DNA from: a virus
Taxonomy: Duplodnaviria > Caudoviricetes
Length of the DNA stretch: 60,395 nucleotides
Strand: one strand, 5' to 3'
Virus record (IMG/VR): IMGVR_UViG_3300046820_000327
Span: 1 to 60,395 of that record
A model generated the notes under the pieces. That model searched no databases and was not told the origin of the DNA. It saw only the letters and a list, made by a program, of their open reading frames with translations. A program made the translations under genes and the position numbers. Of this stretch, positions 17,630 through 54,942 are shown piece by piece; position 1 is the first letter of the stretch; each line of letters begins with the position of its first letter.

Positions 17630-17835
17630 ATAATTCTTTTAACTACTCCTTTGTAACAAAGTGGCACATACCACCAAGGTCGACGTTTAGGTTTTGCTAA
17701 GGTGTATTCCCATTGACTGCCATTGGGACTGGTCCATACAACATGAAATCCTGCCCAAGTTCGACTTTTGTGAAAGTGTATTTTACCACCCCAACGAAAA
17801 CGCATCCACAACACATAAAACAAGCAATTACACAT
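17626..17835 (-). CDS. Small Trp-rich hypothetical protein inside the isc cluster
   Basis: Overlaps both neighbours in operon fashion. Confidence 0.55.
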
Positions 17836-18208
17836 CGTGCTTCTTCTTATAATCTTCTACTGCGGCTTTTACTGCGTCTTCTGCGAGGATACTGCAATGG
17901 ATTTTAACAGGTGGAAGAGCCAACTCCTCGGCGATGTCGCTGTTTTTAATAGCTGACGCCTGGTCAAGAGTTTGTCCTTTGAGCCATTCAGTAACGAGAC
18001 TTGAACTTGCGATTGCTGAACCGCATCCATATGTTTTGAATTTTGCATCTGTGATGATTCCATTTTCTACTTTAATTTGCAGTTTCATTACGTCACCGCA
18101 AGCAGGGGCACCAACCATACCAGTGCCTACATCTGGATCGTCTTTAGCGAAGGAACCCACATTACGTGGGTTCTCATAGTGATCAATTACTTTGTCGGAA
18201 TAAGCCAT
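17828..18208 (-). CDS. iscU: Fe-S scaffold protein IscU
   Basis: MAYSDKVIDHYENPRNVG, APACGDVM, KTYGCGSA and LPPVKIHCS motifs. Confidence 0.97.
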   Translation of the reverse strand: MAYSDKVIDHYENPRNVGSFAKDDPDVGTGMVGAPACGDVMKLQIKVENGIITDAKFKTYGCGSAIASSSLVTEWLKGQTLDQASAIKNSDIAEELALPPVKIHCSILAEDAVKAAVEDYKKKHDV

Positions 18209-25153: not shown

Positions 25154-26572
25154 TTATTCTTTGGCTTTCAAACCTGCAAGCATCTGTTTGAGCTTGTTGC
25201 TTTGTGCTTCGCCCGTAACTTTGGGCATGATTTCGCCTGTGTCTTGATCTACTGAATTTGTAGACGCAGATACTGTAGTGCTGGTTTTAATTTTACTTAA
25301 AATACTGCTGGCTTGTACGGGACCACCTGAATGTTCTTGTGCATCTGGGCCCGGATCTGTAATACGCATGGTTTCAATGTTGTATTCTAAGTCAACTTTC
25401 ATGCCCACGCCATTACTACTACGAGTTTTCATTAACTGAATTTGATAACGTCCACGCTCTTTCATAGCACGACTTGTAAAAATACCAAACACGTTATCAG
25501 CTGTGTTGATCTTACTAATACCACCGGAAATATGACTATGGTCAAATTCGATTTCTTCCACGGCACTACGATTTAACTGCGATGCTGTTACTAGTAGCAC
25601 ACCTAATTCTTTAGATAAGTTACGCAATTCTTCTGACACATACTTGTCCTTAACAAACAAGTCGTTGGGACTAACTTTTGCACTTACTGGCATCAGCAAG
25701 TCCAAATAGTCAACCATCATAAAGTCAACTTTGTTGCCTGTTTGAATTTGATATTCTTTAACAAAACTGCGAATGTCGTTGATGTTACTTTGTGCTGGTA
25801 AGGACTTGATACGATATGTACCGGACTTTTTACCCACCATTCTAATTTTTAGTTCTGTGCTGTCAATGTCCTTGCGAATATCTTTTGTGCTGGTATTGGC
25901 CAACATAGCGGCTGTACGCAATGCACACAATTCTTCACTAAGTTCTAGGGAAATATAAACACCGCTAAGTCCTTGTTGTAACCAGCTGAGTGCAATATTC
26001 ATCATAACCAAGGATTTACCTGATCCAGATCCACCTGCAAAAATGTTTAGTTCGCCACGGCTAAATCCACCGTATAAAATCTTGTCCAAAGTAGGCCAAC
26101 CTGTGCTAACCTGTCCACCTTGATTAAAGTATCTGTTAAGAGCATCACCGGCTGTGTTAAAGAAGTCTGTGCCAAGATCTTTGGTTAAACTAATCTGTAC
26201 TGCGTCTTTGATTAGTTTTTCCACAGGATCATACTCGCCCTTTTCCAACAAGTCTGCGGATTTAAGAATAGCACGTTCTAGTTCTTGTCTGCGAGTAAAC
26301 TGTTCGAACTCGCTCATGAACCATTCGTTATGCTCAGACATTTCGCCAGCAGGTTTTAGTTCAACACCTGTGGTTGCACGAATTTGTTCTATAGTGGGAA
26401 GAGTGCTGTATTGAGCACTATAGTCTGTGATAAATTTTGCAGTTTCACGCAAACTGCGATCAAAGTTTTCAGCATTGTAGATGTTCTGCACACGCACAAA
26501 GTTCTGTGCGTCATTCAACATCATTTCTAAAAATAGTTTTTGTAATTCTGGACTGTATTCTTTAGTTGACAT
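25154..26572 (-). CDS. Replicative DnaB-family helicase (T4 gp41-like)
   Basis: Walker A GGSGSGKS, SLELSE, MVDYLDL and TASQLNR motifs. Confidence 0.92.
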   Translation of the reverse strand: MSTKEYSPELQKLFLEMMLNDAQNFVRVQNIYNAENFDRSLRETAKFITDYSAQYSTLPTIEQIRATTGVELKPAGEMSEHNEWFMSEFEQFTRRQELERAILKSADLLEKGEYDPVEKLIKDAVQISLTKDLGTDFFNTAGDALNRYFNQGGQVSTGWPTLDKILYGGFSRGELNIFAGGSGSGKSLVMMNIALSWLQQGLSGVYISLELSEELCALRTAAMLANTSTKDIRKDIDSTELKIRMVGKKSGTYRIKSLPAQSNINDIRSFVKEYQIQTGNKVDFMMVDYLDLLMPVSAKVSPNDLFVKDKYVSEELRNLSKELGVLLVTASQLNRSAVEEIEFDHSHISGGISKINTADNVFGIFTSRAMKERGRYQIQLMKTRSSNGVGMKVDLEYNIETMRITDPGPDAQEHSGGPVQASSILSKIKTSTTVSASTNSVDQDTGEIMPKVTGEAQSNKLKQMLAGLKAKE

Positions 26573-26578
26573 ATATTA

Positions 26579-27610
26579 TTAATTATACAATTTTTTCTTG
26601 AGTAACTCAATTTTAAGTTTGCCAGTTTCTTTTGCGGCTAGTATGCTTTTCAAAACAAACAATTTACCCAGTGCCTCTACTGCACTACCAACGTCTTTGT
26701 AATCTTTTTGCCAAACGGGATAGCTGACATGCCAACCATATTCTATAGCCGCATCAACTAACTTAGTGCCTGCACGATCAGCATCGGGTACAACAATAAC
26801 TTCCTTGCCTAAACTATCAATGATGTCTGCTTGTACTTCACTACATTCGTTGCTTAGTACTGCAATACCATCAATGGCCATAGCATCAAACGGGCCTTCT
26901 ACTACAATAACAAACTTTGAATCTTTCGATTGTTTGTCAATGTTGAATACATAGTTGGGTTCGTAGTTGGAATGATACTTAGGTTTTACGCCTTCGTCAA
27001 ATGTTCTGGCTGTGTATCCAATAATTTGATTCTTCCAAGTAAACGGAATAATTACACGCTTGTGCAAATTATACTGTGCTTCTGGTGTCCAGTAAAAGTC
27101 GTACTTGGTTAAGTCTACGCATCTATCTGCTAGATAGCACACACTCTTATGAAATCCTTCTGGTACATCTTGATCTCCGTTAAGAGTATAGAATGTGTTC
27201 AACGCTAGTAGTGTTTGTGCCTGATCGGGCAAGGTTCTTACTTTAAATGTAACCTCTTCCCGTTCAACTTTTTCTAATTGTTCAGGGGCAACTAATTCCT
27301 TAACACGAATAGCATCAATGACTAGACGTTTAACTTCATTTTCACTGGCACCAAGCCAGCTTAATAGTTTACGGAACTTGTAGGTTAAGTGACGACCAGG
27401 AACATAGCTAGCCTTGAAGTTACAATTAAAACAATGATAACTGATACCGCCGTCTGGGTTAGCAACCAGTCCGCCACGCCCACGTGTGTCTGCTGACTCA
27501 CCATTGTGATGACAACAAGGCGCATTGAAACTAATCCAACCTGAAGTTGCATTAGTTTTCTTTTTAGAAGGAAGTAGTAGCTTTACGGCGTCTTGAATAG
27601 AGTTCAACAT
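26579..27610 (-). CDS. DNA primase (T4 gp61-like)
   Basis: N-terminal Zn finger (PCC...HCFNC) and TOPRIM VEGPFDA...PDADRAG...KD. Confidence 0.88.
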   Translation of the reverse strand: MLNSIQDAVKLLLPSKKKTNATSGWISFNAPCCHHNGESADTRGRGGLVANPDGGISYHCFNCNFKASYVPGRHLTYKFRKLLSWLGASENEVKRLVIDAIRVKELVAPEQLEKVEREEVTFKVRTLPDQAQTLLALNTFYTLNGDQDVPEGFHKSVCYLADRCVDLTKYDFYWTPEAQYNLHKRVIIPFTWKNQIIGYTARTFDEGVKPKYHSNYEPNYVFNIDKQSKDSKFVIVVEGPFDAMAIDGIAVLSNECSEVQADIIDSLGKEVIVVPDADRAGTKLVDAAIEYGWHVSYPVWQKDYKDVGSAVEALGKLFVLKSILAAKETGKLKIELLKKKLYN

Positions 27611-29473: not shown

Positions 29474-32400
29474 TTAGTTAGATTGAACATTACCAGAGAT
29501 TGCCCACTGGTCACGACCAACTTTTAACAGAGTAGCAATACCATACTGTGTCAATTCTACATAGTCATAGTAGCCTTCGCCTACAATCATTAGACCCATG
29601 CTGCCGCCTTCTTTGTTAATGTAAACACTACTTGAATCCATGTTAACAATGGTGATCACTGTGCCTACGGGAAACTCTACGCGAGCATTGTAAGGAATCA
29701 GGATTTCATCATTTTCATTTAAACACAAGATGTGATGTCCGCGATCCTTCATGCCCAGGGTATAACGTTGTCCCCAATATCTGCGTTGTGGAATATCTGT
29801 TGCTGAAGTGTTTTGTGTAGTGCCGTCGGCAAACACAATGCGTCCACCATCTGTGTCACGCACAGTTTCAACACTATAGTCGGGATAGAAAGTGTCAACA
29901 TAGAGATCGCCCGAGGCTACGGTAAATGTACTGGTAGTCTTGACTGTGACAGTTTCACCGTCGGCCAATGGACCGGCATAGTTGTTTTCATCTCCCAAGT
30001 TGACGGGATCAACATCATAGTTGACACCAGTTATTCCAGGATCACTAAAACTGCCGGTCATAGCATTGACATCTGTGTAGCGGAATGAACCGTGCTCACC
30101 TGTGCCTGTGCCGTCAATGGGTAGTCTCGCAGCCATACTTGAGTTGTAGTCATTGGCATAGAAGTAGGCTGTGATGTAATAACTGTTGGCATCTACTGCC
30201 AAGCAACGACCATTCTTGAATCGTGTGTCGCTGTCTGTTGTAGCCATTAGCCAACGCTTGTAAACAGTTTCTCCGCTAGGTGTTAACAAGAACACTTTAA
30301 GAGCATCATCGCCGATGTCATCGTTGTAGGCTTCACAGGTCACTAATAAGTTGCCAGAGGCTGTACGAGCAATCACTGAATCATCACCACTGTCTGTGAC
30401 TCGCTGCCACTTGACTGTGCCTGCGGTGTCAAGTTTAGTGATCACAGTTTCGCCATTGTCATTGCTGTCGTGTGTGACATAGATGTCTGTGCCAATGGTC
30501 GTAACACTCTTGGCATAGCAGTCATAGTCTCGTTCATTTAGTTTACGGCTCCACTGTAGTGCTCCTGCTGAATTAAACTTGTAGACCATGGCAAGGTCAT
30601 CGTCGTTGCCTACACCTAACAGGCCATAACCTTGACCTACTGCGATAATGTTGTTACTGCTGTCCACTGCCACAGCATAGAGTCTATCTGTGCTGTCGGC
30701 TCGTGTACCAAATGTGCGAGTCCAGTCTTCGGTGATCAGCAAGTTTTCTCTGCTCAATGGATATGTAATGCTCCACGAACCTGAACCACCAAAGTTGGCC
30801 TGTGTAGTTGTTTCCAACTTCCAAGTGGTGCTTTGGCTGGTACCTGCTAGAGTATAACTACTCGAAACAGTACCGCCTGGAGCATACGCTGTCCAAGTTA
30901 GGTCATTGGCCGGGCTTGTGCCGCCAAGACTTGTACCTGGGATAACAATAATATCACCGTCCGCATAGTTTGAGCCACCGTTGGTAATGTTGTAGTTGTT
31001 GTAGTTGGCGTAGTCGTTATTGAATCTTGAACTTTCAAATGTCACTGTAAATCCTGAACCTACATCTGTGTTGGTTCCTGATAAACCTGTATAGGTAGCA
31101 GTCACACTACCAGCGGCTGTTCCTGAGTTGCCTACACCAGTAATAGCACCACTGCCATCTACAGCCTGTACTGTGATGATAATATCGTTAGTAACATCTA
31201 CTCCGCCGATTGCTGAACCCAAAATCTTGATCTTGTGTCCTGCTCGATAGTTTGTACCACCATTGACAACACCAGCACTATAACTGCCATTGCCATTGTC
31301 AATAATGTCAAATGTAGCACCCAAGCCTTGACGAACTGTACCAGTTACACCCACATAGCGTTCTATATAGAGAATATTTTCAAACACACTAAAGCCTGTG
31401 CCACCAATCTGCCAACCGCTTGGGTTACCTGGTACATCACTTCTTGAGATGTAAAGTGTACCTGTGGTACTGCCTTGTAAAGGAGTGACTGGAGTTTCAG
31501 GACTGAATTCACCGTTCTTGCTGCCGGCCAACACATAATCACCTGTGCTGTTGTAGGCAATGTCATTTAAGTAGACATCACTGTCACTGTCGCTGAATGT
31601 TTGATTGTTAAGAATACGACCGGTATCTTGATCTATAGTGATTAGAGCACTATATGTATAGTTGTCATAGAACTCACAGACCAACATAACATTGCCTGTG
31701 GTTGGGTGTATGGCTATACCGTTACTGCGGCCGCTGTTGCCGTTGTTGTCTTCTTGAACACGCACACTCCACAGCATCGCACCTTCTGGACCGATCTTCA
31801 TCACCCAAGGCTGATTGTCATCATCTTCTTCACCAACCACATACATATTTCCCTGACTGTCTACAGTAATAGCACGAGTGTTAATATCGTCGTTATAGTT
31901 TTGAGGACTGCCAATGGCTGCTAGATAACCTACCTGTGTTTGTGTTAGCCGTAGATCGCCGTCGTTGGGAATATTCAATGTGCCATCGGCACCAAATGTG
32001 TATTGATATACATCGCTCTTGACAATGTTGTTGGCAACACGAGCCTCTGGGTCAACCTCTGTTGAGTAGTTGGTAACTACCAAAGTGGTAGTGTCTGTGG
32101 CTAATACCATATCACTGCTGACATCAACCGTAGCGTGTGTGACAAAGCGTCCTGGTACACGACTTTCTGTAAAATCTAAATCACCAATGGTCAACTCTGT
32201 GCCATCTGTGGGCAGTTGTGCCACAAAGTAATCATACTCGTTGTCATCAGTGCCGCTGAAGTTCCACGGACGGGTGTTACTGCTGTTCCCATAACCGTCT
32301 ACGGCAAACTTGTTGTCGTAGACTGCTAGGGCCTGTCCACGCACACTTTCGTTGTCGTAGTTTTCGTATAAGTTCACAACATCCACATAGCGTTGCCAAA

Positions 32401-33595
32401 TCACAGCACCCTGTGCGTCATAGCGAGCCACGATTAACTTATTGTCGCCGTAGGCAGTTTGTAAAAACTCTGGAGCCTCAAGATACTCACCATCAGTTCT
32501 TTTAGTAAATGTTATAGCACTTAAATAAACTTCCCCTGTGGCTGTGGCTGTTAGACCTGTGGCAAATCCGCCGCAAGGTCCAGGACCAATTCTGCGTGTC
32601 CACTGTACCTCACCGCTACTATTCAGTTTTGTTAATATACCCGCGGACTGAGAATTATTACCATTAGCGTTAGTTGTGTTAACTTGATATGTGCCCACAG
32701 CATAGATGTTGCCCAGTGCGTCACTGGCACAGTCACCGCCATACATATTGTAGTCTGTGCCACTGTCCAAACTCTTGCTCCAGACTCTGACTAAACTTGA
32801 GGTCATCTTTTCAATAAACATCTTGTTCTTGCTGGCAACACCGTCATAGTACCAACCAGTAATATAGACTGTGGCTCCATTGTCAGTGACATCAATACCT
32901 GTAGGGTATACATTTTGTCCGTCTCGCTCCAGTGTTTTCTGTGTGTTCACACTACCATTGACAGTACTAATGTCTAGCAATAACGCATAGTTAGGACTAG
33001 TGGTTACGGCCACAGCCACTACTAGACTGGTTGAATTCTTTTCTTCAATAACTGCGTCTTCTAGGTTAGTTCCTTCATCGTAGTTGTAATTCTTGTCCCA
33101 TAGTACTGAACCTGTAGTGCTGAACTTAATGATCTGTAGTTCAGGACCAAACTGAGTCACCACATAGGCCTGGTCACTTGAGTCAATGGCCAGGTTCAAT
33201 GCTCCTCTGTCAGTCAGAGTCTTTTGCCAAGCAATGCTGCCAGCGGCTGTGTATTTGGTCACAATGACTACATTACCTTGACCACTGTTGCTTTCAGTTA
33301 GAGCATACAGGTTGCCGGCACTGTCATAGCGTAGGGCTCTTGGATAGGTATCGTCTTGATCTCTACGCTGTGTAGCGATCCAGTGTGCTGTGCTACCTGC
33401 TTGGACTACTACTGAACCATCATCTGCCAATGTATCTCCACCTGCGTGTGGCAGACTGGCCCAGGCTGTTTCACCATCACCATATTTGACTTTGCCAGTG
33501 TCTGTTTCTAAGCCTGGCTCACCTGCGGATAAGATTGGATTTGCTTCAAGCCAGTTAGCGGCTGTATCTCTGCGTAGTTTGATTCTTGTTGTCAT
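29474..33595 (-). CDS. Large fibre/adhesin with an Mtd_N domain and two beta-propeller-like regions
   Basis: RIKLRRDTAANW...L.AGEPGLETDTGKVKYGDG N-terminus; repeated D..GN.Y...K..S.G...W.. blades. Confidence 0.85.
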   Translation of the reverse strand: MTTRIKLRRDTAANWLEANPILSAGEPGLETDTGKVKYGDGETAWASLPHAGGDTLADDGSVVVQAGSTAHWIATQRRDQDDTYPRALRYDSAGNLYALTESNSGQGNVVIVTKYTAAGSIAWQKTLTDRGALNLAIDSSDQAYVVTQFGPELQIIKFSTTGSVLWDKNYNYDEGTNLEDAVIEEKNSTSLVVAVAVTTSPNYALLLDISTVNGSVNTQKTLERDGQNVYPTGIDVTDNGATVYITGWYYDGVASKNKMFIEKMTSSLVRVWSKSLDSGTDYNMYGGDCASDALGNIYAVGTYQVNTTNANGNNSQSAGILTKLNSSGEVQWTRRIGPGPCGGFATGLTATATGEVYLSAITFTKRTDGEYLEAPEFLQTAYGDNKLIVARYDAQGAVIWQRYVDVVNLYENYDNESVRGQALAVYDNKFAVDGYGNSSNTRPWNFSGTDDNEYDYFVAQLPTDGTELTIGDLDFTESRVPGRFVTHATVDVSSDMVLATDTTTLVVTNYSTEVDPEARVANNIVKSDVYQYTFGADGTLNIPNDGDLRLTQTQVGYLAAIGSPQNYNDDINTRAITVDSQGNMYVVGEEDDDNQPWVMKIGPEGAMLWSVRVQEDNNGNSGRSNGIAIHPTTGNVMLVCEFYDNYTYSALITIDQDTGRILNNQTFSDSDSDVYLNDIAYNSTGDYVLAGSKNGEFSPETPVTPLQGSTTGTLYISRSDVPGNPSGWQIGGTGFSVFENILYIERYVGVTGTVRQGLGATFDIIDNGNGSYSAGVVNGGTNYRAGHKIKILGSAIGGVDVTNDIIITVQAVDGSGAITGVGNSGTAAGSVTATYTGLSGTNTDVGSGFTVTFESSRFNNDYANYNNYNITNGGSNYADGDIIVIPGTSLGGTSPANDLTWTAYAPGGTVSSSYTLAGTSQSTTWKLETTTQANFGGSGSWSITYPLSRENLLITEDWTRTFGTRADSTDRLYAVAVDSSNNIIAVGQGYGLLGVGNDDDLAMVYKFNSAGALQWSRKLNERDYDCYAKSVTTIGTDIYVTHDSNDNGETVITKLDTAGTVKWQRVTDSGDDSVIARTASGNLLVTCEAYNDDIGDDALKVFLLTPSGETVYKRWLMATTDSDTRFKNGRCLAVDANSYYITAYFYANDYNSSMAARLPIDGTGTGEHGSFRYTDVNAMTGSFSDPGITGVNYDVDPVNLGDENNYAGPLADGETVTVKTTSTFTVASGDLYVDTFYPDYSVETVRDTDGGRIVFADGTTQNTSATDIPQRRYWGQRYTLGMKDRGHHILCLNENDEILIPYNARVEFPVGTVITIVNMDSSSVYINKEGGSMGLMIVGEGYYDYVELTQYGIATLLKVGRDQWAISGNVQSN

Positions 33596-33811: not shown

Positions 33812-35557
33812 TTAATTTGGGGTTAGCCAAGTGCCAGCACCACCACCGCCCACAAACGCAGGAGTCACTGGCTTATCAGTTAAGTCATTGTAACTAACTG
33901 TGCCTGTCCACGCTGTAGTCTGTACAGTAGCATCGTTGAATGTCACTGATTCCAATGTTGGATTAGTGTCTGGCGGTGCTAGTACTGTTGGACTAGCATC
34001 AACCCATTGCTCATTGTATTTGACATACACACGAGCTTCTTCTGTATTAAACCAAAGGGTGTCTGTGTTGGGTGCTGTTTCACTGGCTGTAACTATATCG
34101 GAAAATGTTATTCCAGTAAATGCTGTTGTTTGTAAAGTACCGTCACCAAACACAATACCAGTAGATTGAACTGCTGGACTTGCACTAAAATATAAATTAG
34201 TTGGTAATGTTATGTTACCAACAGCATCAAATAACCATTGTTGGCCGTCCTCTGATGTGTTGATTACAACACAGTTGCCGCCACTAACTCGTAAAGCATT
34301 GCCATCCTGGTCAGTGTCTTGGTCAATGTAACCGTAGTTTAACCAGATTGCGCCACCAGTGGGTAGATACAGCGAGCCATCTGAATCTAGTGTTACTGTG
34401 ACGTTACCGTTGACTAATACGTTAGTGTTTCCGCTGTTGTTTAGTTGATCAACCCATTCAGTATGATAATCATCGCCGTCAACTTTAGCCAACACTTGTC
34501 CGGTGGTGCCGCCTATAGGAACTCCTACCCCAGCAGGACCTTCTACGCCTTGTTCACCTTGTGGTCCTTGATCTCCCTGTGGGCCAACATCTCCCTGGGG
34601 CCCTTGATCTCCTTGTGGGCCTGGATCGCCTTGTGGACCTGGATCGCCTTGTGGCCCAGTTGGTCCTGTTTCGCCTTGTAAGCCAACATTTCCTTGAATA
34701 CCTTGCTCGCCTGTATCGCCTTTGTCTCCGCGTGGTCCAACAATAGGTCCAATATCTGCCCAACTACTAATAGTCGTGTTCCAAAAGAACAAGTTGCCTG
34801 TGCTGGTAACAATATATGCTTCACCTGCATTGCCACTAAATGTTAAATCTTCAGGTAATGCTACATTACCTACCAGTGTAACGCTAATACCCTGATCGCC
34901 GCGATCACCTTTGATGCCTTGTATGCCCTGTGGACCAGTAGCTCCAACGTTGCCTTGGATACCTTGTGTGCCGGTAGGACCTGTGTTGCCTTGTATTCCT
35001 CGTGGACCCACATTACCCTGAAGACCTTGTTCTCCACGCGGGCCTGTATTACCTTGTATACCCTGTATACCCTGTTCTCCACGCGGGCCTGTATTACCTT
35101 GTATACCCTGAAGACCTTGTTCTCCACGCGGGCCTGTATTACCTTGTATACCCTGAAGACCTTGTTCTCCACGCGGGCCTGTATTACCTTGTATACCCTG
35201 TATACCCTGTTCTCCACGCGGGCCTGTATTACCTTGTATACCCTGTATACCCTGTATACCTTGGTTTCCCTGTGGTCCTTGAGGGCCAACTACTCTACCT
35301 GTATTAATTACAGCACTATTGCTTAATGTAAGTATTAAGTTACCATTAGTAACTGTTGCTGAGGAAATTGTAGTAGCGTTTCCACTACCGCCGGCGCCTT
35401 GTACAATATGTCCGCCAGCAGTTACGCCGTCTTGTATACGCAAAGTGCGTAATCCGGTATCAATAATTACTTCGCCAATTGGTCCAGTATAATTGCTTGC
35501 CGCGGTAGTATTACCGCGTTTTAACAAGATTTGTGAAATTTTTACATTTGCAGTCAT
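33812..35557 (-). CDS. Collagen-like fibre protein with an Mtd_N-like N-terminus
   Basis: QILLKRG...YTGPIGEVIIDT...IQDGVTAGG N-terminus; two Gly-X-Y blocks. Confidence 0.9.
   Translation of the reverse strand: MTANVKISQILLKRGNTTAASNYTGPIGEVIIDTGLRTLRIQDGVTAGGHIVQGAGGSGNATTISSATVTNGNLILTLSNSAVINTGRVVGPQGPQGNQGIQGIQGIQGNTGPRGEQGIQGIQGNTGPRGEQGLQGIQGNTGPRGEQGLQGIQGNTGPRGEQGIQGIQGNTGPRGEQGLQGNVGPRGIQGNTGPTGTQGIQGNVGATGPQGIQGIKGDRGDQGISVTLVGNVALPEDLTFSGNAGEAYIVTSTGNLFFWNTTISSWADIGPIVGPRGDKGDTGEQGIQGNVGLQGETGPTGPQGDPGPQGDPGPQGDQGPQGDVGPQGDQGPQGEQGVEGPAGVGVPIGGTTGQVLAKVDGDDYHTEWVDQLNNSGNTNVLVNGNVTVTLDSDGSLYLPTGGAIWLNYGYIDQDTDQDGNALRVSGGNCVVINTSEDGQQWLFDAVGNITLPTNLYFSASPAVQSTGIVFGDGTLQTTAFTGITFSDIVTASETAPNTDTLWFNTEEARVYVKYNEQWVDASPTVLAPPDTNPTLESVTFNDATVQTTAWTGTVSYNDLTDKPVTPAFVGGGGAGTWLTPN
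35017..35262. repeat. About 5 near-identical 45-bp tandem repeats encoding GNTGPRGEQG(I/L)QGIQ
   Basis: The unit containing ...TGTTCTCCACGCGGGCCTGTATTACCTTGTATACCCTG... recurs every 45 nt. Confidence 0.9.
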
Positions 35558-36085: not shown

Positions 36086-36454
36086 GTGGAAGAAATTAAA
36101 CAGCTTTTAGCCAAGTACCCATTCATTACATACCTAGTGTACGGTGGCAACGATTATATAGGTATTGTACAAAACGCAGATGAGCAAATCACAACCATCT
36201 ACGACTTTGGTAGTTTAAAGCACCCAGAACAAAAGATGCGATTCTTGGAGCTAGGGGAACAATGGTGGTGGGAAAGCAATCGCTTGATACCCATTAACGT
36301 GTTCTTAAAAGCAGACTGGGCAGAGTTCAAGTTTTGTGTTAAAACCATGAACAGCAAAGACGTGGATATAAAATTAGGCCCACATACGAGCCTAAAAGAA
36401 ATGGCAATGAAGCGTAGTAAACGCCGTAGTATTACGCTGGTTCGTAAAGTTTAA
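36086..36454 (+). CDS. Hypothetical protein, the only convincing plus-strand gene
   Basis: Fills the gap between two minus-strand operons; no competing ORF. Confidence 0.8.
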   Translation: MEEIKQLLAKYPFITYLVYGGNDYIGIVQNADEQITTIYDFGSLKHPEQKMRFLELGEQWWWESNRLIPINVFLKADWAEFKFCVKTMNSKDVDIKLGPHTSLKEMAMKRSKRRSITLVRKV

Positions 36455-37053
36455 GCGTAGCCATAGCTGATTTTTTCACAGAATAAATTTAAATTAACTG
36501 CCACTAAATGAGCATACGCTACAGCGTGTGACTTTTTAAATGTGTAACCTTCTTCTGTGGCGTCCCAGATAGTTTCAGCAACTTCCTTCCAAGTTTTTCC
36601 AATCAAGTGTCGCTTACCCGGACGAATAATAGCCAAGAACATGGCCATGCGTGGAATGCTATCCACAGGTTCGGGCATTTTCATAAGCGTGTCGTAGTGA
36701 TTGCCTATGTGAATCATTTGCTCACATACTGTACGTTCTTTAAGCAAGTCCCACAGTGGCTCTTGTGACATCAAATACTGCAAATGTTCTTCATTCTTTA
36801 TCTGGGTATATAACGAAACATTCAACAAATCCAGCTTCATGTATCCACGATCCTCAGCGGCCTTGTGATCTATACTAGCCACTCCTGTAAAAGGATCTAC
36901 TGGAATGTCTGTGATATAAACTCCAGTGTTGTGTTTGATTAAATTGCCGTCTCTGATAATACCCGCAGGGGTATGTTTGAGCAACGCCAATGCTTGCTCT
37001 CTATTACCAAAATCTATGTCAATGTCACTAGAGAACTTAATTGTTTGTGTCAT
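36451..37053 (-). CDS. Minimal DnaE (C-family DNA polymerase alpha)-like protein, 200 aa
   Basis: DIDIDF, KHNTGVY, GYMKLDLL, LAIIRPG and GYTFKKSHAVAYA occur in DnaE order. Confidence 0.85.
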   Translation of the reverse strand: MTQTIKFSSDIDIDFGNREQALALLKHTPAGIIRDGNLIKHNTGVYITDIPVDPFTGVASIDHKAAEDRGYMKLDLLNVSLYTQIKNEEHLQYLMSQEPLWDLLKERTVCEQMIHIGNHYDTLMKMPEPVDSIPRMAMFLAIIRPGKRHLIGKTWKEVAETIWDATEEGYTFKKSHAVAYAHLVAVNLNLFCEKISYGYA

Positions 37054-37245
37054 TTCTTCTCTCTGCTTTTCTTTTTGCCCAACCTTCTCTCATTTTTTGT
37101 TTTTCTTGTTCTGTTCGTTCTTTACCTTTGTTCCATGCAGTTCTACCTTTATTAGCTTTACTAACTGCATCCTTAACTGTATCATCTCTCGGAATGCCTT
37201 TGTTCAAAGTCAATATCTATGTGGGTCGTTGGTGTTAAATTTCAT
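37037..37245 (-). pseudogene. Decayed homing-endonuclease remnant (NUMOD3 repeats) joined to a duplicated dnaE-like 5' end
   Basis: ATG at 37245 gives MKFNT; a shifted frame gives HIDIDF; the third frame (37207-37037) gives NKGIPRDDTVKDAVSKANKGRTAWNKGKERTEQEKQKMRE. Confidence 0.65.
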
Positions 37246-37481
37246 CGCAAAATATAGTTAATTAAACCTAGGGCCCAGGTTGTGGACATTACAATAAAAA
37301 CACTTGCGGCTGCATATTCACGCATACGCAATAGTATAACTGCCCATGCACCATTGCCCACAGTTAAAAACACAAAATTCATCCACGGATGTAGTGCTAA
37401 ACTAGTTGATACTGCACCACAAAACATCAGTAGTGTACAAAACCATTTAACCTTGGCTAGGTGTTGCTTTAAAAATTCCAT
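37242..37481 (-). CDS. Small membrane protein (about 3 TM helices)
   Basis: Hydrophobic segments; MEFLKQH start preferred. Confidence 0.65.
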   Translation of the reverse strand: MEFLKQHLAKVKWFCTLLMFCGAVSTSLALHPWMNFVFLTVGNGAWAVILLRMREYAAASVFIVMSTTWALGLINYILR

Positions 37482-37587
37482 TCTCGTAATGCTTGAAAAT
37501 ATGATTCGCTGGGAAAAACAAACGGCAATGCCGATACTGCAATTATAGCAACAATTACCCAGGCTGTCAAATACCAATCTTTCTTGC

Positions 37588-38289
37588 TCATAGGCCTGCC
37601 TTTTCTAATATGTCCTTGACCCATTCAGTATCGGCCAAGTAATCTTTAAACTTGCGTTGCCAATGGTCGGGATCTATCCATAGTAAAATAATACCCACTT
37701 GTTCTTCAGTAAGTGTTTCTAAAAACTCCACGCCCGTGGCACAGTTATACACTACCCACGGACTAATACGGCCAGTTGCAATATGATGGCAAATGCGATT
37801 ACTATTACCGTAGCGAAAGTAATCTGTAAAACCGTTTTTAAGCTCAGGGTGCGTGTCTGCATAGTCTTGCATTTCCTTTAGTGCTCGTTCTAGTGCGTCT
37901 TGTACTGCTTCACGTTTTAAGTATTCTGGTAACCATTCTGTATACATACTGTCCTTGCACCAATAGTCTAGCTTTTTATTGTTCTTCAACAACCAATCTA
38001 AAAAGTTAGGGTAATTGATACAGCGTATGTCTTGGCAATAACGACCAAACTTAACAAAAGCATTGTAATAAGGGCTAGTTACAAAATCCTCATATGATTT
38101 TAGTTTAGCTGATCCTTGGCTGTATTCATAAAAACGCAAGTATGCTTTAAGTCCCAACTGCACACCTGTTTCTTTTTCTTGTTGCCAACGACGCTTAGGC
38201 TCACATTGATGCACCGTAAGAGTTGATTCCTTACGAAATGCCTTGTCACAGTACCGACATTTATAGGTCGGACTTGATACGCTTGTCAT
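37588..38289 (-). CDS. Phage protein with an N-terminal C2H2-like Zn finger
   Basis: YKCRYCDKAFRKESTLTVHQC; start uncertain (the ORF extends to 38334). Confidence 0.75.
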   Translation of the reverse strand: MTSVSSPTYKCRYCDKAFRKESTLTVHQCEPKRRWQQEKETGVQLGLKAYLRFYEYSQGSAKLKSYEDFVTSPYYNAFVKFGRYCQDIRCINYPNFLDWLLKNNKKLDYWCKDSMYTEWLPEYLKREAVQDALERALKEMQDYADTHPELKNGFTDYFRYGNSNRICHHIATGRISPWVVYNCATGVEFLETLTEEQVGIILLWIDPDHWQRKFKDYLADTEWVKDILEKAGL

Positions 38290-38731
38290 CCCATCCATGT
38301 TCTCTTGCCAGGCGCTTAAGATCGTCTTTATCATTGATTTGTGCTAATAGTTTAATTTCGTCGGGCTTTAATGCTGGATAAATTTCAGCAAGAAACTTTT
38401 CTGCTTTGTTGTTGGCTGTTTCTTTTTTCTTGGCCGCAAGCCATTTGTGATACTGTTTGCCCATACCTGGGCTTACTGTTGTGGCCAATAACCACTGTAG
38501 CTTTTTATGTTGGCTGGTGCTGATGTCAAAGAAGTTCTTGTTTAGTCTTTCATTACAACTAACAAGATAATAACTTTGTAACTCACTAGATCCTTCTACT
38601 GCCGCACCCCAACGGATCATTAGAAAAGGACTAAACTTTTTCTTTTCATCATCATCAAGGTTGTCAAAGAAGTTTCGATCCTTGAGATCAAATTTAAGCA
38701 TTTCATTACTGATGTGTAGTTTATCTGTCAT
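38261..38731 (-). CDS. Putative clamp-loader small subunit (T4 gp62-like)
   Basis: KKFSPFLMIRW...NE..N...F...HKKLQW pattern; replication-gene context. Confidence 0.55.
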   Translation of the reverse strand: MTDKLHISNEMLKFDLKDRNFFDNLDDDEKKKFSPFLMIRWGAAVEGSSELQSYYLVSCNERLNKNFFDISTSQHKKLQWLLATTVSPGMGKQYHKWLAAKKKETANNKAEKFLAEIYPALKPDEIKLLAQINDKDDLKRLAREHGWDDKRIKSDL

Positions 38732-39003
38732 ACTGGATGCCACCCTGGTGGATCTTCCTTTTTATTAAGTTCATATATGATTATAACACGATCTATAGCT
38801 TCTTGTAAAGCAGGATTTGTTTCGGCGGCATAGAGTATGTCTACCCATTGCTTGGTACGTTTAGCAAGCTCGTCTCTTTGTAATCGATCGTAAGTCCAAC
38901 CAATAGCTACTCTGTCACCCGGATGGGCGCCTGCTTCTCTAGCATAAGTTACGCCATCCGCATGTTCATAAATGTAGGTAGCACCAGGCTTAAGTTTGCC
39001 CAT
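38728..39003 (-). CDS. Hypothetical protein
   Basis: Coupled on both sides. Confidence 0.7.
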   Translation of the reverse strand: MGKLKPGATYIYEHADGVTYAREAGAHPGDRVAIGWTYDRLQRDELAKRTKQWVDILYAAETNPALQEAIDRVIIIYELNKKEDPPGWHPV

Positions 39004-39344
39004 TAATGATTACGCTTTCCTTGAAATACACAGTTAAAGATCATGTGCATTTCTCCATCATTAATTACACGATGAAATGCTCCGTCGGGCACAAGAACAA
39101 TGTCTCCTGCACCTACATCAAATGGCTCGTCTGTTTCGTTGCCCACAATCATTTTGCCGTAGCCTTGCACAAAGAAATAAACTTCTTCTTGTCCTGCATG
39201 TCTATGTCCGCGTGTTTGCTGTCCGCGGTATAGCTTTGTGCTACTTAGCACAAGATTATTTAGATATTTGTTGTCTTTAAGTAGATAAGTTTCATTGTCT
39301 TTAACTACTTCGCCGCCAACGTTAAACTCAGATACTTGTTGCAT
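39003..39344 (-). CDS. Cupin domain protein
   Basis: GHRH..QEEVYFFVQG.G and GDIVLVPDGAFHRV motifs. Confidence 0.88.
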   Translation of the reverse strand: MQQVSEFNVGGEVVKDNETYLLKDNKYLNNLVLSSTKLYRGQQTRGHRHAGQEEVYFFVQGYGKMIVGNETDEPFDVGAGDIVLVPDGAFHRVINDGEMHMIFNCVFQGKRNH

Positions 39345-39861: not shown

Positions 39862-40596
39862 TTAATTCCAATGCGGTGTCATATCTAGTAATACTTTTAC
39901 AAAATCGTCGTGTGCTTGTTGTGGGTTATGATTGATAGCACGTTCATGTAACCCATATGGCATGTCCCAGGGTTGAGGCCTTGTCCACAGTCTATCGCCA
40001 ACAAATGCCCAGTCACAGTAGAACATAGGTCCGCCCATAAACACAAATTCTTTCTTTAGTGCAATCAGCTTACGCAGGCCTTCAGCAATAATGAAGTAGT
40101 CTTTCATCTGATCCAGCTGGAAACTATGCAGGTATGCTACATAGTGCTTCATTGCATCAATTACTTCAGGAGTAATTTCTTTGCGTTTGAAGTTATCGTG
40201 TGGTACAAAGTCGTAGAAATCTGTGGTCCAGTTGTTGATACTGTCGCTGATAATTTTGGGATTACGTGTGTCTACATTGTGCTCGCTGGTACTGCGATAG
40301 CCACGATACTCAATATCCTTGATTGTAACTGGCCATTGTATGTCATTTTCTTTACCCGGGATAGGTATCTCCATACGATCGCTGGTAGTTGTTCCTATTA
40401 CTACGAAGTCGGCATTGCGTCTAATAGCTTCTTCAATTTGTAAACGTATCAAGAAGTTTGTAGCACCACTACGCCCAAGACTAACGTGATCAAATCCTTT
40501 TTGGTCTGCATACAAATCTAAAAAACTTGTAATGCCATGATTCTCTGTATCAATGGCCATAAAACTACAGCCACAACTAAACAATTTCTTTTTCAT
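39862..40596 (-). CDS. SGNH/GDSL-like hydrolase (paralogue 3)
   Basis: GCSFM, SLGRSGATN and a C-terminal NHN motif. Confidence 0.6.
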   Translation of the reverse strand: MKKKLFSCGCSFMAIDTENHGITSFLDLYADQKGFDHVSLGRSGATNFLIRLQIEEAIRRNADFVVIGTTTSDRMEIPIPGKENDIQWPVTIKDIEYRGYRSTSEHNVDTRNPKIISDSINNWTTDFYDFVPHDNFKRKEITPEVIDAMKHYVAYLHSFQLDQMKDYFIIAEGLRKLIALKKEFVFMGGPMFYCDWAFVGDRLWTRPQPWDMPYGLHERAINHNPQQAHDDFVKVLLDMTPHWN

Positions 40597-42050
40597 TTCC
40601 AGTCTGCTTTCTCTACAGTAAACGGGTAATTCGCTTCTTTGTAAAACGCTTTGCGTTTAGTGAGGTGGCGTTTAGCGAACTTGCAGGTACTCGTGATGTC
40701 CCAAATTTGGACAAAGTCTTTGTCTTCTGCTTTCCTAATACCTCGTCCAATAGACTGGATAACGCGGACAAAGCTCTTTCCGGGTTCCACAAGAACCAGA
40801 TTAAAGATCCTAGGAATATTAATACCCACAGCGGCCACACCATAAGTCGCCACAATAATTTTCCCATCACTAACAGCCACTTCATCATATTCTTCCTTCC
40901 GATCCTTTGCCTTGGTTGCACCCGACACGAATACTGCACGGTCTTTTAATTTTTGCTCTAGCATTTTACCTGTGTTAACACGATCCACCAACACCAATGT
41001 ATTACCTGTTTCGTTTACACTACGAACTAGATTACTAATATAGTCAAGACGTTCGTCGTTTTCAACTAGATACTTTAGCTCGCTTTGATAGTTATTGTAT
41101 TCACTGTGATCAATTAACTGTACAATGTTTACATGACAGTTAGCAAGGTGACCGGCTTCTTGTAGCTCTGCGGCACTTAGCTTGCCTACTACATGCCCTA
41201 GGCTAACATAGATACTAACTGCGGCATAGTCTTCCTTGGGAATCGTGCCTGTCAATCCCCAACGAATAGGTATATGACTCATTACACCTGTTAATAATGT
41301 CTTAAGAGCATCTGCTTTGGCCATGTGTACTTCGTCAACAATAACGCACACAACATCTTCAATAAATTCGCCAATGGTACAGTCTGTTTCTCCCGACTTG
41401 GTATTCTTTAACAATATGTTTAGACTTTGCCAAGTACAGATGGTATGCGTTTTGCCCCACTCTTTACGATCACCAAAGTAAACACCTACATCAAGTCCTA
41501 GATTACGATAGTCATCTTCAGTTTGCGACACTAGACTTTTGTTAGGCACAATAACAATCGAACGGCCGTATGCTTCTACACTCTTGCTCAATGCGGCAGT
41601 CATAATTGTTTTGCCGGCACCTGTAGCAACTTCTTGCACACTCTGCGGATTCTGCAAAAAGTTATTGATAATTTCTACTTGATAGTCGCGGAATGTGATA
41701 GGTTGCCCTGCGGCAGGATGGCCCGCTGGCCAAACGCTGTCGGCAAAAGTATCTTCTGCAAACTCACTGAACTCATACTTGGTACTGTAAGTACGCAGAT
41801 CCTCAATTTCAATGTCATAGCCCTCACTGTCAATGAAAGGGATAATCTCGGGCAGTAGGTTAATATAAGTACTACCACCTAATTGAAAGTAGCTTACTTT
41901 TCCATCCCAACGTCCCAAACGAACAGCCGGCAGATATCTAGCACCCGGCACTTCATACTTGAACTTGTCTACCAGCTTCTTACGAGTACCTAGTTCTAGT
42001 CCTTCTACTTTGACGTTTACTTCGTCTTTGATAATTAATTTAGCTTGCAA
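40593..42050 (-). CDS. uvsW: UvsW-like SF2 DNA helicase
   Basis: WDGK, RDYQ, ATGAGKT, DEVH, GLTGT and QSIGRGIR motifs. Confidence 0.9.
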   Translation of the reverse strand: MQAKLIIKDEVNVKVEGLELGTRKKLVDKFKYEVPGARYLPAVRLGRWDGKVSYFQLGGSTYINLLPEIIPFIDSEGYDIEIEDLRTYSTKYEFSEFAEDTFADSVWPAGHPAAGQPITFRDYQVEIINNFLQNPQSVQEVATGAGKTIMTAALSKSVEAYGRSIVIVPNKSLVSQTEDDYRNLGLDVGVYFGDRKEWGKTHTICTWQSLNILLKNTKSGETDCTIGEFIEDVVCVIVDEVHMAKADALKTLLTGVMSHIPIRWGLTGTIPKEDYAAVSIYVSLGHVVGKLSAAELQEAGHLANCHVNIVQLIDHSEYNNYQSELKYLVENDERLDYISNLVRSVNETGNTLVLVDRVNTGKMLEQKLKDRAVFVSGATKAKDRKEEYDEVAVSDGKIIVATYGVAAVGINIPRIFNLVLVEPGKSFVRVIQSIGRGIRKAEDKDFVQIWDITSTCKFAKRHLTKRKAFYKEANYPFTVEKADWK

Positions 42051-46693: not shown

Positions 46694-46912
46694 TCAGCTG
46701 TTTACAGTGGCGAACGGGCTTAGATCTTCGGTGTTGTTTTTATGCAACAGAATGTTAGTACGGCTAGTAACCACTAACTTAGCCCTGTGCTCTAGTTCGT
46801 CCTGAAAGTCCCGTTCCACCCCGGCCATCCAAGCCTCATATTCCTGCTCATAAGGAAATGCTGTTTCATATTCTTCAATTAACAAATCTTTAATTTTAGA
46901 CATAATACTCAT
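46694..46912 (-). CDS. Small acidic hypothetical protein
   Basis: AAGGAG RBS. Confidence 0.6.
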   Translation of the reverse strand: MSIMSKIKDLLIEEYETAFPYEQEYEAWMAGVERDFQDELEHRAKLVVTSRTNILLHKNNTEDLSPFATVNS

Positions 46913-47345
46913 ACTCCTTGTGTTGTTGATAATGTTTAACGAAATTAACGGCTTCTTTTATTTGTGCCACAGGAACTGCATTTTCTTTATAACCTTCATA
47001 TAGCATATCTAAATAACCTTGACTAGGCATAGAATCTATATTATCAGGTAACATAAAATAAGTAATTGCTTTAATGGATTTATTATTATGGATAACAGTT
47101 ACTTCTTTACGATCATAATAAAATGGATAACCTTCTAGTGCATCTAAGGATTTTAAACAATCGTCAGTAATGTCCCATAATACTCCGTCAACATAATATT
47201 CATCATTTTCCAGAATATCTGCGTGACGAGCAAAACGGAATTCGTAGTTAGGAAGTACAGCATGACCCAATGATTGGGCTTTAGGGCATCTAACTGCCAT
47301 CTGTCCCAAATTGGTGTTCATGCCATAGGCAAAATATTTTATCAT
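46896..47345 (-). CDS. Gamma-glutamylcyclotransferase (AIG2-like) family protein
   Basis: YFAYGMN, V.GVLWDI, LDALEGYP..Y.R and PSQGY motifs. Confidence 0.88.
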   Translation of the reverse strand: MIKYFAYGMNTNLGQMAVRCPKAQSLGHAVLPNYEFRFARHADILENDEYYVDGVLWDITDDCLKSLDALEGYPFYYDRKEVTVIHNNKSIKAITYFMLPDNIDSMPSQGYLDMLYEGYKENAVPVAQIKEAVNFVKHYQQHKEYEYYV

Positions 47346-50429: not shown

Positions 50430-51145
50430 TAATTTTTAATTGGATGTCCATTGGGTGCAATATTACCTTCTACACCCACTGCATCTACTTCATAGACAGT
50501 TTCTTGATCTAAGAATTTAGCCAGTACATGCTCAATGTCAATGTACCCACCGTTGTTTACACGCTCAACAAAGCAAGCAAAACTACGTTCATATACATTA
50601 ATAATGTTGTCATTGAGTGCCCGCGGCCAAGACCACAAGCGAGCCATATACTGCCAAGGCTGTGTGGTTAGTTCTACTGGAAACTGACTTTTGTGTTTGC
50701 GACCAATAACAACCTTGTCTACTACATCTGGTGCTTGATATAAAGATAGGTCAAATTGATCATTAATAATGTATCTGCCAGACATCTTGTGGATACGATC
50801 GTATGTATCTAAATCGCCGGAGTCTTTAAGCAATTTTAATGCACGACCAAAGCACATGATTTCTGTTCCATTTTTTACAATGTCCCAATTGTCTGTGCTG
50901 TTGTACATACTGCGTACATCTGGTTCGTCAGTTAAATCAATAAAGATATCGCAGGCATCTTCAAGTGCTTGTGCTTGTTCGGGTTTTAGATCCTCGCCAG
51001 TTACTTCCATAATAACTACTTCAGCACCTGGCACATGGCGACGAATACTGGCCACAGTATCTAATGTTTGCTGTAATCTATCCGCAGGGTTGAATACACC
51101 AAAGCGGCTGTTAATAGCACTAGTTACAATAAAACAATGCTTCAT
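50429..51145 (-). CDS. Hypothetical protein, possibly glycosyltransferase-like
   Basis: FIVTSAI...R..QT..T..SIR and KMSGRY motifs; located in the sugar cluster. Confidence 0.6.
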   Translation of the reverse strand: MKHCFIVTSAINSRFGVFNPADRLQQTLDTVASIRRHVPGAEVVIMEVTGEDLKPEQAQALEDACDIFIDLTDEPDVRSMYNSTDNWDIVKNGTEIMCFGRALKLLKDSGDLDTYDRIHKMSGRYIINDQFDLSLYQAPDVVDKVVIGRKHKSQFPVELTTQPWQYMARLWSWPRALNDNIINVYERSFACFVERVNNGGYIDIEHVLAKFLDQETVYEVDAVGVEGNIAPNGHPIKN

Positions 51146-52173
51146 TTACGCAACCAACGTGTGTTAATTAATGTCCAGTCCACTACTTCTTTAACACGAT
51201 CGCTAAACTTGATCTTTGGCTCCCATCCTAGACTCTTTAGTAGTCCGCCATCCAATGCATAACGCAAATCGTGACCAGGACGTGAGCTGTGGAAGTCAGT
51301 CATTTCGTAAACAAGTTCTTTACCCACTGCACCAGCAATCATTTTGGCTAGTGTTAGGTTGTCAATTTCTTCTGGGCCTACTAAGTTAAACTTAGGACAC
51401 TTAGCACCACCGTAATCACCTGTGTGTTTATAATCTTTTAGTTTATCTAAAATAAACATTAAGCCATCTGCTACGTCCTTAGCGTGAATATAATGTCGTG
51501 ATCCTGCTTTGGTTTTGCTTGGGTCACTGTGTACAGTTACTAACTCGCCGTCACGAGCTTTTTGGATTACCATTGGAATAAACTTCTCTGGGTGTTGACG
51601 TTCACCAAACACGTTCATAGTGTGTGTTACCACAATAGGAAGTTTGTAAGTGTTTTCAAACGCTACACAGATTTCCTCAGCGGCCGCTTTTGATGCTGAG
51701 TATGGATTTGTTGAATTGTAACGATCGTACTCTTTGTAGTTTACACCTTCCGGTGCTGGACCAAATACTTCATCAGTGGAGAAGTAAACAAATCGTTCCA
51801 AGTTCTTTAGTGTGCGAGCATAGTTAAGCAAGTTGGTTGTACCAACTACGTTATCCATAACAAATTCCATCGGGAATTCAATTGAACGGTCAACATGTGA
51901 TCCTGCGGCCAAATGTAGCACAATTTCCACAGGACCAATTTGGTCTTGGATCATTGGATTCAGTTCTGCTTTTAAGTCGTGGAATACAACTTTAAGACGT
52001 TTGCGTTGCTCTGGGTCGATGTCTTGCATCATATCAGCAAGACGATTTAAGTTACCACTAAAGTCCAGGCGATCTAGACTTACAATTTCCCAATCTGTGG
52101 TACGTAGGATTCTTTCAATTACGTGGTGTGCAATGAAACCTGCACCGCCAGTGATTAGCACTCTTTTTGACAT
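51142..52173 (-). CDS. rmlB: dTDP-glucose 4,6-dehydratase-like NAD-dependent enzyme
   Basis: TGGAGFI, HLAAGSHVDRSI, STDEVFG, YSASK and RPGHDLRYA motifs. Confidence 0.9.
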   Translation of the reverse strand: MSKRVLITGGAGFIAHHVIERILRTTDWEIVSLDRLDFSGNLNRLADMMQDIDPEQRKRLKVVFHDLKAELNPMIQDQIGPVEIVLHLAAGSHVDRSIEFPMEFVMDNVVGTTNLLNYARTLKNLERFVYFSTDEVFGPAPEGVNYKEYDRYNSTNPYSASKAAAEEICVAFENTYKLPIVVTHTMNVFGERQHPEKFIPMVIQKARDGELVTVHSDPSKTKAGSRHYIHAKDVADGLMFILDKLKDYKHTGDYGGAKCPKFNLVGPEEIDNLTLAKMIAGAVGKELVYEMTDFHSSRPGHDLRYALDGGLLKSLGWEPKIKFSDRVKEVVDWTLINTRWLRK

Positions 52174-54477: not shown

Positions 54478-54942
54478 TTATTTTTTGTTCAAATACTCAT
54501 CTATATGACTTTGTATTTGTGGCCTACGTTTTCCGTTATAATATGCTTGATGTGTTGGGCACAACGGCACAATATTATGGTCCGATGCGTCAGTTTCGTC
54601 ACCGTTGACAGCAACAATGTTCACCAATTTTTCTTCCCCGCATACACAGCAACGTTTTTCAATCTTAGTTAAATCTGGTAGCTGTATGTCGCGTTTTTGT
54701 TCATGACTCCAACGCTCAAGATACTGTTTGATTGCTGGTAATACATCCTCGGGCCAGTGACTGTGCAAATACCTGTGGTGTGTTGGGCACAATGGCAATA
54801 CATTTTCTGGGCGTTGATCCGTTTCTACTTCGTTCATGTGATGCACGTCTAGTACGCCATCCTCTCCGCATACTACGCATTTACGCTCATGGTGCTGAAA
54901 ACACACCCATCTAAATCCATTTTGAAAGTCTGTAATTTCCAT
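54478..54942 (-). CDS. Tandem Zn-binding HNH-like repeat protein
   Basis: Two CxVCGE...N..PLCPTH units; only the first keeps the HH..N..H residues. Confidence 0.75.
   Translation of the reverse strand: MEITDFQNGFRWVCFQHHERKCVVCGEDGVLDVHHMNEVETDQRPENVLPLCPTHHRYLHSHWPEDVLPAIKQYLERWSHEQKRDIQLPDLTKIEKRCCVCGEEKLVNIVAVNGDETDASDHNIVPLCPTHQAYYNGKRRPQIQSHIDEYLNKK

Follow-up and report, generated by a model that had tools for sequence, protein, structure and literature searches.

A split, minimal form of the DNA polymerase III (Pol III) alpha subunit has been described for group 2.2 jumbo phages by Iyer et al. 2021 (Viruses 13:63, PMC7824862). According to excerpts of that paper, these phages are without other Pol III domains, the mini-Pol III might act together with the family B enzyme in the synthesis of one strand or in repair, and the split form may, as the authors propose, serve to model the ancestral core of Pol III. 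Group 3.2 jumbo phages, e.g., Bacillus phage G, carry in the same excerpts a host-like, full-length Pol III alpha with a PHP domain as sole replicase (PMC7824862). The active-site residues of Escherichia coli DnaE are D401, D403, and D555, and H760 of this enzyme has been proposed as a steric gate that excludes ribonucleotides (PMC8485763, excerpts). We analysed a stretch of 60,395 nt from a tailed phage (Duplodnaviria; Caudoviricetes), positions 1 to 60,395 of IMG/VR record IMGVR_UViG_3300046820_000327 and hereafter called the window, and identified at 36451..37053 on the minus strand a gene whose 200-aa product (P0001) is most likely the C-terminal, metal- and template-binding unit (C-unit) of a split minimal Pol III alpha as in the Rak2-, PA5oct-, and Atu_ph07-like jumbo phages of group 2.2. 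The gene family is already known and this gene is a further member only. The DnaE-like protein that had been singled out in a first-pass annotation of the window is not new, since Iyer et al. 2021 describe the same split minimal enzyme.

The C-unit is encoded by one intact open reading frame (ORF), in which five DnaE motifs were confirmed in canonical order, namely DIDIDF (residues 10–15), HNTGVY (41–46), GYMKLDLL (70–77), RPG (144–146), and YTFKKSHAVAY (170–180). On the minus strand, the codons of D10-I-D12-I-D14 occupy 37012..37026, with D12 and D14 equivalent to E. coli D401 and D403. Those of K73-L-D75 (36829..36837, minus strand) correspond to E. coli K553 and D555, the third catalytic aspartate, in an alignment to GLVKFDFLGL of E. 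coli DnaE. R144-P145-G146 (36616..36624, minus strand) are the equivalents of R639-P640-G641 at the base of the fingers, and K173-K174-S175-H176 (36526..36537, minus strand) include with S175 and H176 the counterparts of S759 and H760, the putative steric gate. Conservation was assessed in 82 diverse full-length homologues, which are representatives of clusters at 50% identity. K73, D75, R144, and P145 were invariant (82/82), and the remaining aspartates were nearly so (D10 and D12 in 81/82, D14 in 80/82). The HNTGVY region retained H41 in 80 and G44 in 81 of the representatives. In the KKSH helix, H176 was kept in 80/82, S175 in 65/82, and K173 in 75/82, with arginine in place of K173 in another six.

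The length of the C-unit is tightly conserved (191–209 aa in the 120 best-matching clusters) and its coding sequence is under strong purifying selection. The ratio of nonsynonymous to synonymous substitution rates (dN/dS, Nei-Gojobori) of the window gene was 0.041 and 0.052 in comparison with its homologues at two related loci (L005 and L006, respectively). For most other loci dS was saturated, and among the 76 of 3240 pairs that were usable (0.1 < dS < 1.5) the median dN/dS was 0.086 (range 0.023–0.421). Neither the variable length nor the relaxed selection that would speak against a functional protein was found. The family is also large: 7965 of 8000 scored candidates of 110–350 aa matched the C-unit at E ≤ 1e-3, and an exhaustive search of cluster representatives yielded 413 clusters at the same threshold, many of those listed being shorter fragments from short contigs. 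In metagenomes, from freshwater and elsewhere, the split mini-Pol III is common and numbers thousands of clusters. Among cultured phages, the closest C-units have at most 48% identity to that of the window. The best profile match was phrog_11778 ('DNA polymerase', profile length 197), which covered the C-unit end to end (E 1.3e-62). The C-unit is a real gene and strongly conserved.

Resemblance to DnaE was faint at the level of the single sequence and clear at the level of the family. Residues 144–190 had weak PHROG matches to three long DnaE-type families, and the NCBIfam DnaE models matched weakly over residues 156–184 (E 0.016–0.11); the best of them, TIGR00594, reached 13.3 bits against a cut-off of 434, and every DnaE model stayed far under its cut-off. 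A phmmer search of the PDB with the single sequence gave four chance-level matches, DnaE not being among them. With a profile built from the 82 homologues, all nine distinct PDB sequences matched at E ≤ 10 were DNA polymerase III alpha (best E 5e-6), and the alignment placed K73/D75 on E. coli K553/D555, R144-P145-G146 on residues 639–641, and K174-S175-H176 on K758-S759-H760. The AlphaFold2 model computed from the 82-homologue alignment had a mean predicted local distance difference test score (pLDDT) of 95.8. When this model was compared with known structures in Foldseek, the first 16 rows were all DnaE-type chains (best E 2.6e-3 only). The structural neighbours above background were all replicative C-family polymerases. 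The likeness of the C-unit to DnaE is evidently not due to chance.

The 200 residues of the C-unit correspond to residues 394–784 of E. coli DnaE, a stretch of 391 residues of which about half is deleted. From D14 to K73 there are 59 residues in the C-unit vs 150 in E. coli (D403 to K553), i.e., 91 are missing, and from G146 to K174 there are 28 vs 117 (G641 to K758), i.e., 89 are missing. These spacings support the view that the motifs were brought together by internal deletions and not by truncation, and the first-pass description of motifs that are spliced together rather than truncated holds in this respect. The stretch deleted between the DxD strand and K-x-D is presumably the thumb. The C-unit ends at about E. 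coli position 784, beyond which we take the clamp-binding and OB regions of DnaE to lie.

At its other end, the C-unit begins only nine residues before the DxD strand and is without the GRGS nucleotide-binding half of the palm; in DnaE family models the GS/GRGS element sits upstream of this split point. The earlier claim that the protein keeps all three catalytic aspartates stands for D12, D14, and D75. It does not extend to the whole palm, the N-terminal GS/NTP-binding part of which is on another chain. That chain, the N-unit, was found in all seven relatives searched (Atu_ph07, Phosso, and G001–G005), each of which encodes one PF07733-positive GRGS ORF of 170–177 aa. G001–G005 are long uncultured relatives whose C-units are 68–73% identical to that of the window, three of them rated 98–100% complete; their single N-unit ORFs have 170–172 aa. 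The N-units of Atu_ph07 and Phosso, which are the nearest relatives in culture, have 177 aa each and a C-terminal end of the form ...GVGRGS...LDF.EFL. The two genes are far apart, the distance being 31 kb in 121Q, 43 kb in PA5oct, ~126 kb in G001, 182 kb in Atu_ph07, and 224 kb in Phosso. Like the C-unit, the N-unit belongs to a large family (7994/8000 scored candidates match). Searches with either unit by tblastn returned 96 phage records with nearly equal spread over host genera. Among the 40 of 96 C-unit records listed, almost all were jumbo phages of the Rak2, PA5oct, Atu_ph07, XacN1, or SCTP-2 type, one listed record being only 142 kb long; the N-unit list includes four Clostridium phages, which matched over only 23% of the query. 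In GenBank both units are named 'DnaE-like DNA polymerase III alpha' or 'DNA polymerase'. No N-unit was found in the 60-kb window (PF07733, 0/1; tblastn, best E 0.022), as is expected because the record is only ~14% complete.

One metagenomic protein of 375 aa (P0142), the only such case in 150 representatives listed, is a natural fusion of both units. The end of its N-part (...GVGRGSSSAS...KEFI) leads directly into ...DFDID... of its C-part. Residues 97–207 of the fusion match PF07733 (profile positions 12–121) and residues 91–206 match positions 304–420 of the full-length DnaE model NF004226, in both cases unbroken across the junction and in the latter also across the DxD motif. A search for the genomic context of P0142 in viral contigs gave 18 pattern matches, none of which was confirmed, and no longer relatives of P0001 were found among 986 candidates, which is weak evidence. 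A mixed MAFFT alignment of the fusion with both units misplaced the N-units (GRGS at position 359 instead of 148) and was not used.

For the prediction of a complex, the C-unit of the window was combined with the N-unit of G001, with our own alignments as input. The interface score (ipSAE) was 0.91, 0.91, and 0.90 vs 0.06 for the best control, contact agreement among runs was at least 96%, and the partner had a pLDDT of at least 87. Among solved complexes, 58 of 80 attain the score mark applied, as do 2 of 110 mismatched pairs; these counts hold only roughly because own alignments were used. The confident contacts join residues 9–16 (DxD strand) and 173–176 (KKSH) of the C-unit to residues 130–143 (W-G-x-G-R-G-S-S) and 160–162 of the N-unit. 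The predicted complex supports, rather than demonstrates, binding of the N- and C-units.

Together, the GRGS unit in 7/7 relatives, the P0142 fusion, and the complex model favour what the first-pass annotation had offered as one of two options, i.e., the palm subunit of a split enzyme. Its other option, a self-contained 200-aa nucleotidyltransferase acting in end-labelling, primer extension, or DNA modification, could appeal to the three aspartates and the KKSH helix lying in one well-folded chain and to the conserved length of that chain. Against such an enzyme, the chain starts nine residues before the DxD strand, without the GS/GRGS element; a separate GRGS protein accompanies it in every relative searched; the two parts are fused in P0142; and in the predicted complex the DxD strand lies buried beneath the GRGSS loop of the partner. 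Because the GRGS nucleotide-binding half is missing, the C-unit does not qualify as a self-contained nucleotidyltransferase, and we consider this option very improbable. Judged from its sequence, the C-unit alone is not a self-sufficient enzyme.

The possibility that the missing DnaE domains are encoded elsewhere was examined in five relatives, i.e., three metagenomic records rated 98–100% complete, Atu_ph07, and Phosso. PHP (PF02811) was absent from all five genomes and gave no Pfam match in the C-unit either, and the control was detected in 14/14 genomes. HHH_6 (PF14579) was likewise absent from all five. The finger model PF17657 had sub-cut-off matches only, in two of the five relatives and inside the C-unit itself. 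All five encode a family B polymerase (PF00136) in open frames of 418–1013 aa. By its domain content, the mini-Pol III is not an ordinary split dnaE.

The same results bear on the idea that the gene is a decayed or catalytically dead dnaE remnant, or one piece of an otherwise normal dnaE that a homing endonuclease has disrupted. In its favour, a 58-aa ORF with a NUMOD3 motif typical of homing endonucleases (37037..37213, minus strand; PF07460, E 5.5e-7) overlaps the start of the C-unit gene by 17 nt. Of 74 related loci, only 3 contain a homologue of this ORF, which points to a late insertion, and the ORF looks like the remnant or the DNA-binding tail of a homing endonuclease that was inserted between the C-unit gene and the upstream zinc-finger gene described below. 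Decay is further opposed by dN/dS values of 0.04–0.09, by catalytic residues that are near-invariant across clusters with less than 50% identity, by the thousands of homologues of the same length, and by the lack of PHP and HHH_6 in the relatives. A decayed or broken dnaE is extremely unlikely.

Under the preferred interpretation as a split minimal Pol III alpha, the C-unit would provide the catalytic beta-sheet, with D12, D14, and D75 holding two metal ions, plus K73. It would also provide a cut-down base of the fingers, composed of R144-P145 and the K173-K174-S175-H176 helix, which in DnaE contacts the incoming deoxynucleoside triphosphate (dNTP) and discriminates against ribose. The N-unit would contribute the other half of a Pol-beta-like palm, its GRGSS loop holding the triphosphate. 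Based on the model and the natural fusion, the two chains may dock with the GRGSS loop against the DxD strand and so rebuild one active site, in which K173/K174 and H176 would place the nucleotide and check its sugar. The assembled enzyme would then be a second DNA polymerase beside the family B replicase, one that uses dNTPs and is probably non-processive. Retention of the steric-gate histidine suggests the use of dNTPs and, in turn, DNA synthesis. Because no part that holds the duplex or binds a clamp is detectable, short-patch synthesis or reliance on other phage proteins is to be expected.

Pol-beta-fold enzymes are functionally diverse, and the assembled enzyme could instead be another transferase of this fold, i.e., a terminal transferase, a ribonucleotide adder, or a synthase of signalling nucleotides, and not a templated polymerase. 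This diversity and the loss of the thumb, clamp-binding, and OB regions, together with the lack of a detectable helix-hairpin-helix domain, would fit such an enzyme. The conservation of the residues that contact and gate the nucleotide in DnaE would not, H176 and S175 being kept in 80 and 65 of the 82 representatives, respectively, and R144-P145 in every one. Also at odds with it are the structural neighbours above background, which are exclusively replicative C-family polymerases, and the location of the gene among primase, helicase, and recombination genes. We regard a transferase of this kind as improbable.

The gene block around the C-unit is conserved. The C-unit gene converges with a gene for a 122-aa protein on the plus strand (36086..36454; phrog_11637), the stop codons of both overlapping. 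All 75 related loci whose downstream sequence extends for 400 nt or more contain a homologue of this neighbour, in 68 of them convergent and within 80 nt, and it is also found in Phosso, Atu_ph07, 121Q, and PA5oct. Beyond its PHROG, no family was found for it in Pfam, PHROGs, or NCBIfam (one NCBIfam match was at chance level), and the Atlas gave no usable match. Upstream of the C-unit and on the same strand lies a gene for a protein of up to 248 aa (37588..38334, minus strand; phrog_11058) with a zinc finger (C26, C29, H42, and C44) and a helical body. Because its annotated start overlaps the next gene upstream by 74 nt, an internal methionine, e.g., at 38289, is the likelier start. The four finger residues are invariant among its homologues, and in related loci there is often no gap, or even an overlap, between the zinc-finger gene and the start of the C-unit gene. 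In four of the 55 loci extracted (L010, L020, L063, and L044), the tblastn-defined frame of the zinc-finger gene has a stop codon, for which sequencing error, pseudogenization, and incorrect extension of the frame are candidate explanations.

The next gene upstream encodes 160 aa (38261..38743, minus strand; phrog_11758) and has no match in Pfam; a kinship of its product with the T4 clamp-loader subunit gp62 is speculative. This gene and the zinc-finger gene were found upstream of the C-unit, on its strand, in all 74 related loci with enough upstream DNA. Homologues of the 160-aa gene also occur in PA5oct, Phosso, and Atu_ph07, and 121Q has a weak match (E 5e-4). The neighbour block as a whole is shared with 121Q, PA5oct, Phosso, and Atu_ph07 at 27–49% identity. 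Between the zinc-finger gene and the C-unit gene the window has, in addition to the NUMOD3 ORF, a variable insertion with a 111-aa ORF (37242..37577, minus strand), for which no homologue was found in 74 loci with at least 1500 nt of upstream sequence, apart from a 73% identical stretch in L006. Further upstream is a UvsW-type helicase (40593..42050, minus strand; Pfam ResIII, Helicase_C, and UvsW_N), and in 121Q a UvsW-like helicase (gp10) occupies the same position. On the other side of the C-unit, the window encodes a DNA primase (26579..27610, minus strand; phrog_47, E 4e-37) and a DnaB-like helicase (25154..26572, minus strand; phrog_19, E 3.6e-69). Beyond the C-unit, 121Q, PA5oct, and Phosso have a virion protein and then primase and helicase genes, and Atu_ph07 has primase/helicase as one fused gene. 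The UvsW and DnaB-like helicases, the primase, and an RNR of the window fit the T4-like replication gene set of group 2.2.

Completion of the palm by the immediate neighbours, at 37588–38289 and 36086–36454, had been considered in the first-pass annotation and finds no backing, since the missing part is a PF07733 protein of ~170 aa that is distant in relatives and absent from the window. Neither neighbour matched a DnaE family in Pfam or NCBIfam, and the model of the zinc-finger protein had no fold match. A different contribution of these genes is conceivable, i.e., that the zinc-finger, 122-aa, and 160-aa proteins are accessory subunits that replace the DNA-holding parts of DnaE, besides the distant N-unit. 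The persistence of the block in all 75 and all 74 loci examined and in 121Q, PA5oct, Phosso, and Atu_ph07 would agree with this, as would the proximity of the zinc-finger gene to the C-unit start and its invariant C-C-H-C finger. Gene order is weak evidence, however, in a region that is altogether a conserved block of replication and virion genes; none of the three proteins resembles a DnaE domain or a known family; and the 122-aa gene runs in the opposite direction. Accessory subunits of this kind are conceivable but rather doubtful.

The fixed position of the split mini-Pol III beside primase and helicase suggests primer extension or repair at the fork, and primer extension at the fork is the role that we would put first, with repair second. 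Several observations weigh against the interpretation as a split minimal Pol III alpha or against this role. The single C-unit sequence matched no Pfam family at E ≤ 0.1, and no Foldseek match of its model reached E ≤ 1e-3. The N-unit of this phage itself was not seen in the ~14% complete record, so that its split is inferred from relatives. The N-unit used for modelling came from another phage, whose own C-unit is 73% identical to that of the window, and the high score of the complex may reflect structures already known to the predictor because the pair resembles the halves of solved DnaE structures. The placement at the fork is based on gene order alone, and the loss of every element of DnaE that holds duplex DNA or the clamp could preclude primer extension. 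A full-text literature search, outside of which lay subscription journals and supplements, returned no report on activity, structure, phenotype, expression, or interactions of any family member.

An extension of the split mini-Pol III to a multi-subunit phage holoenzyme, in which the neighbouring proteins would act as DNA-holding or recruiting subunits and which would elongate lagging-strand primers and then pass them on to the family B replicase, appears unlikely at present. If it were true, such a holoenzyme would represent a division of labour like that of DnaE and PolC in Bacillus, with a core of half the usual size, and the rare fusion of N- and C-units would illustrate the way in which enzymes of cellular type arise from such cores by fusion.

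Other features of the window include a 236-aa exonuclease (15549–16259, minus strand; phrog_298, E 5.8e-58); in relatives a DnaQ/epsilon-like 'DNA polymerase exonuclease subunit' is annotated near the replication block (121Q gp9). Tail-fibre genes separate the polymerase block of the window from its primase-helicase pair, an insertion relative to 121Q and PA5oct; they encode a 1373-aa tail-fibre-like protein (29474–33595, minus strand) and a 581-aa fibre protein (33812–35557, minus strand), with extended G-x-y repeats of the collagen type. Two paralogues of phrog_17776 lie in tandem (16995–17321, 108 aa, and 17318–17629, 103 aa; minus strand) and overlap at stop and start. Auxiliary genes, all on the minus strand, encode a tryptophan-halogenase-like protein (54942–56600), a nucleotide-sugar epimerase (51142–52173), a gamma-glutamyl cyclotransferase (46896–47345), a NifU-like protein (17828–18208), and a cupin (39003–39344).

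In comparison with bacterial DnaE and PolC (E. coli, 2HNH; Thermus aquaticus, 3E0D; Geobacillus kaustophilus PolC, 3F2B), the C-unit lacks a complete palm on one chain. It begins at the DxD strand and holds the three aspartates, whereas a separate chain carries the GS half of the palm; it is also without the full thumb and fingers and ends before the clamp-binding and OB regions. The mini-Pol III would thereby constitute a natural experiment in minimal C-family catalysis, with ~370 residues on two chains vs more than 1100. With the full-length phage Pol III alpha (phrog_405, a weak profile match over C-unit residues 155–183) it shares the occurrence of a C-family polymerase in a phage. It differs from that of group 3.2 in that it is split, reduced to a minimal module, and accompanied by a family B replicase. 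The closest agreement is with the split minimal Pol III alpha of group 2.2 (PMC7824862, excerpts), which likewise has a standalone C-terminal unit of ~200 aa with Mg-binding aspartates and a template-binding part, an NTP-binding N-terminal partner in a distant gene, here seen in relatives, and a family B polymerase beside it in phages of the Rak2, PA5oct, and Atu_ph07 type, here also from relatives. The P0142 fusion, the conserved neighbour block, and the retention of the steric-gate histidine were seen here and not found in the excerpts of Iyer et al. (PMC7824862). There is no substantive difference from the system in these excerpts (PMC7824862), to which the window adds a new sequence from a fragment of an uncultured freshwater phage.

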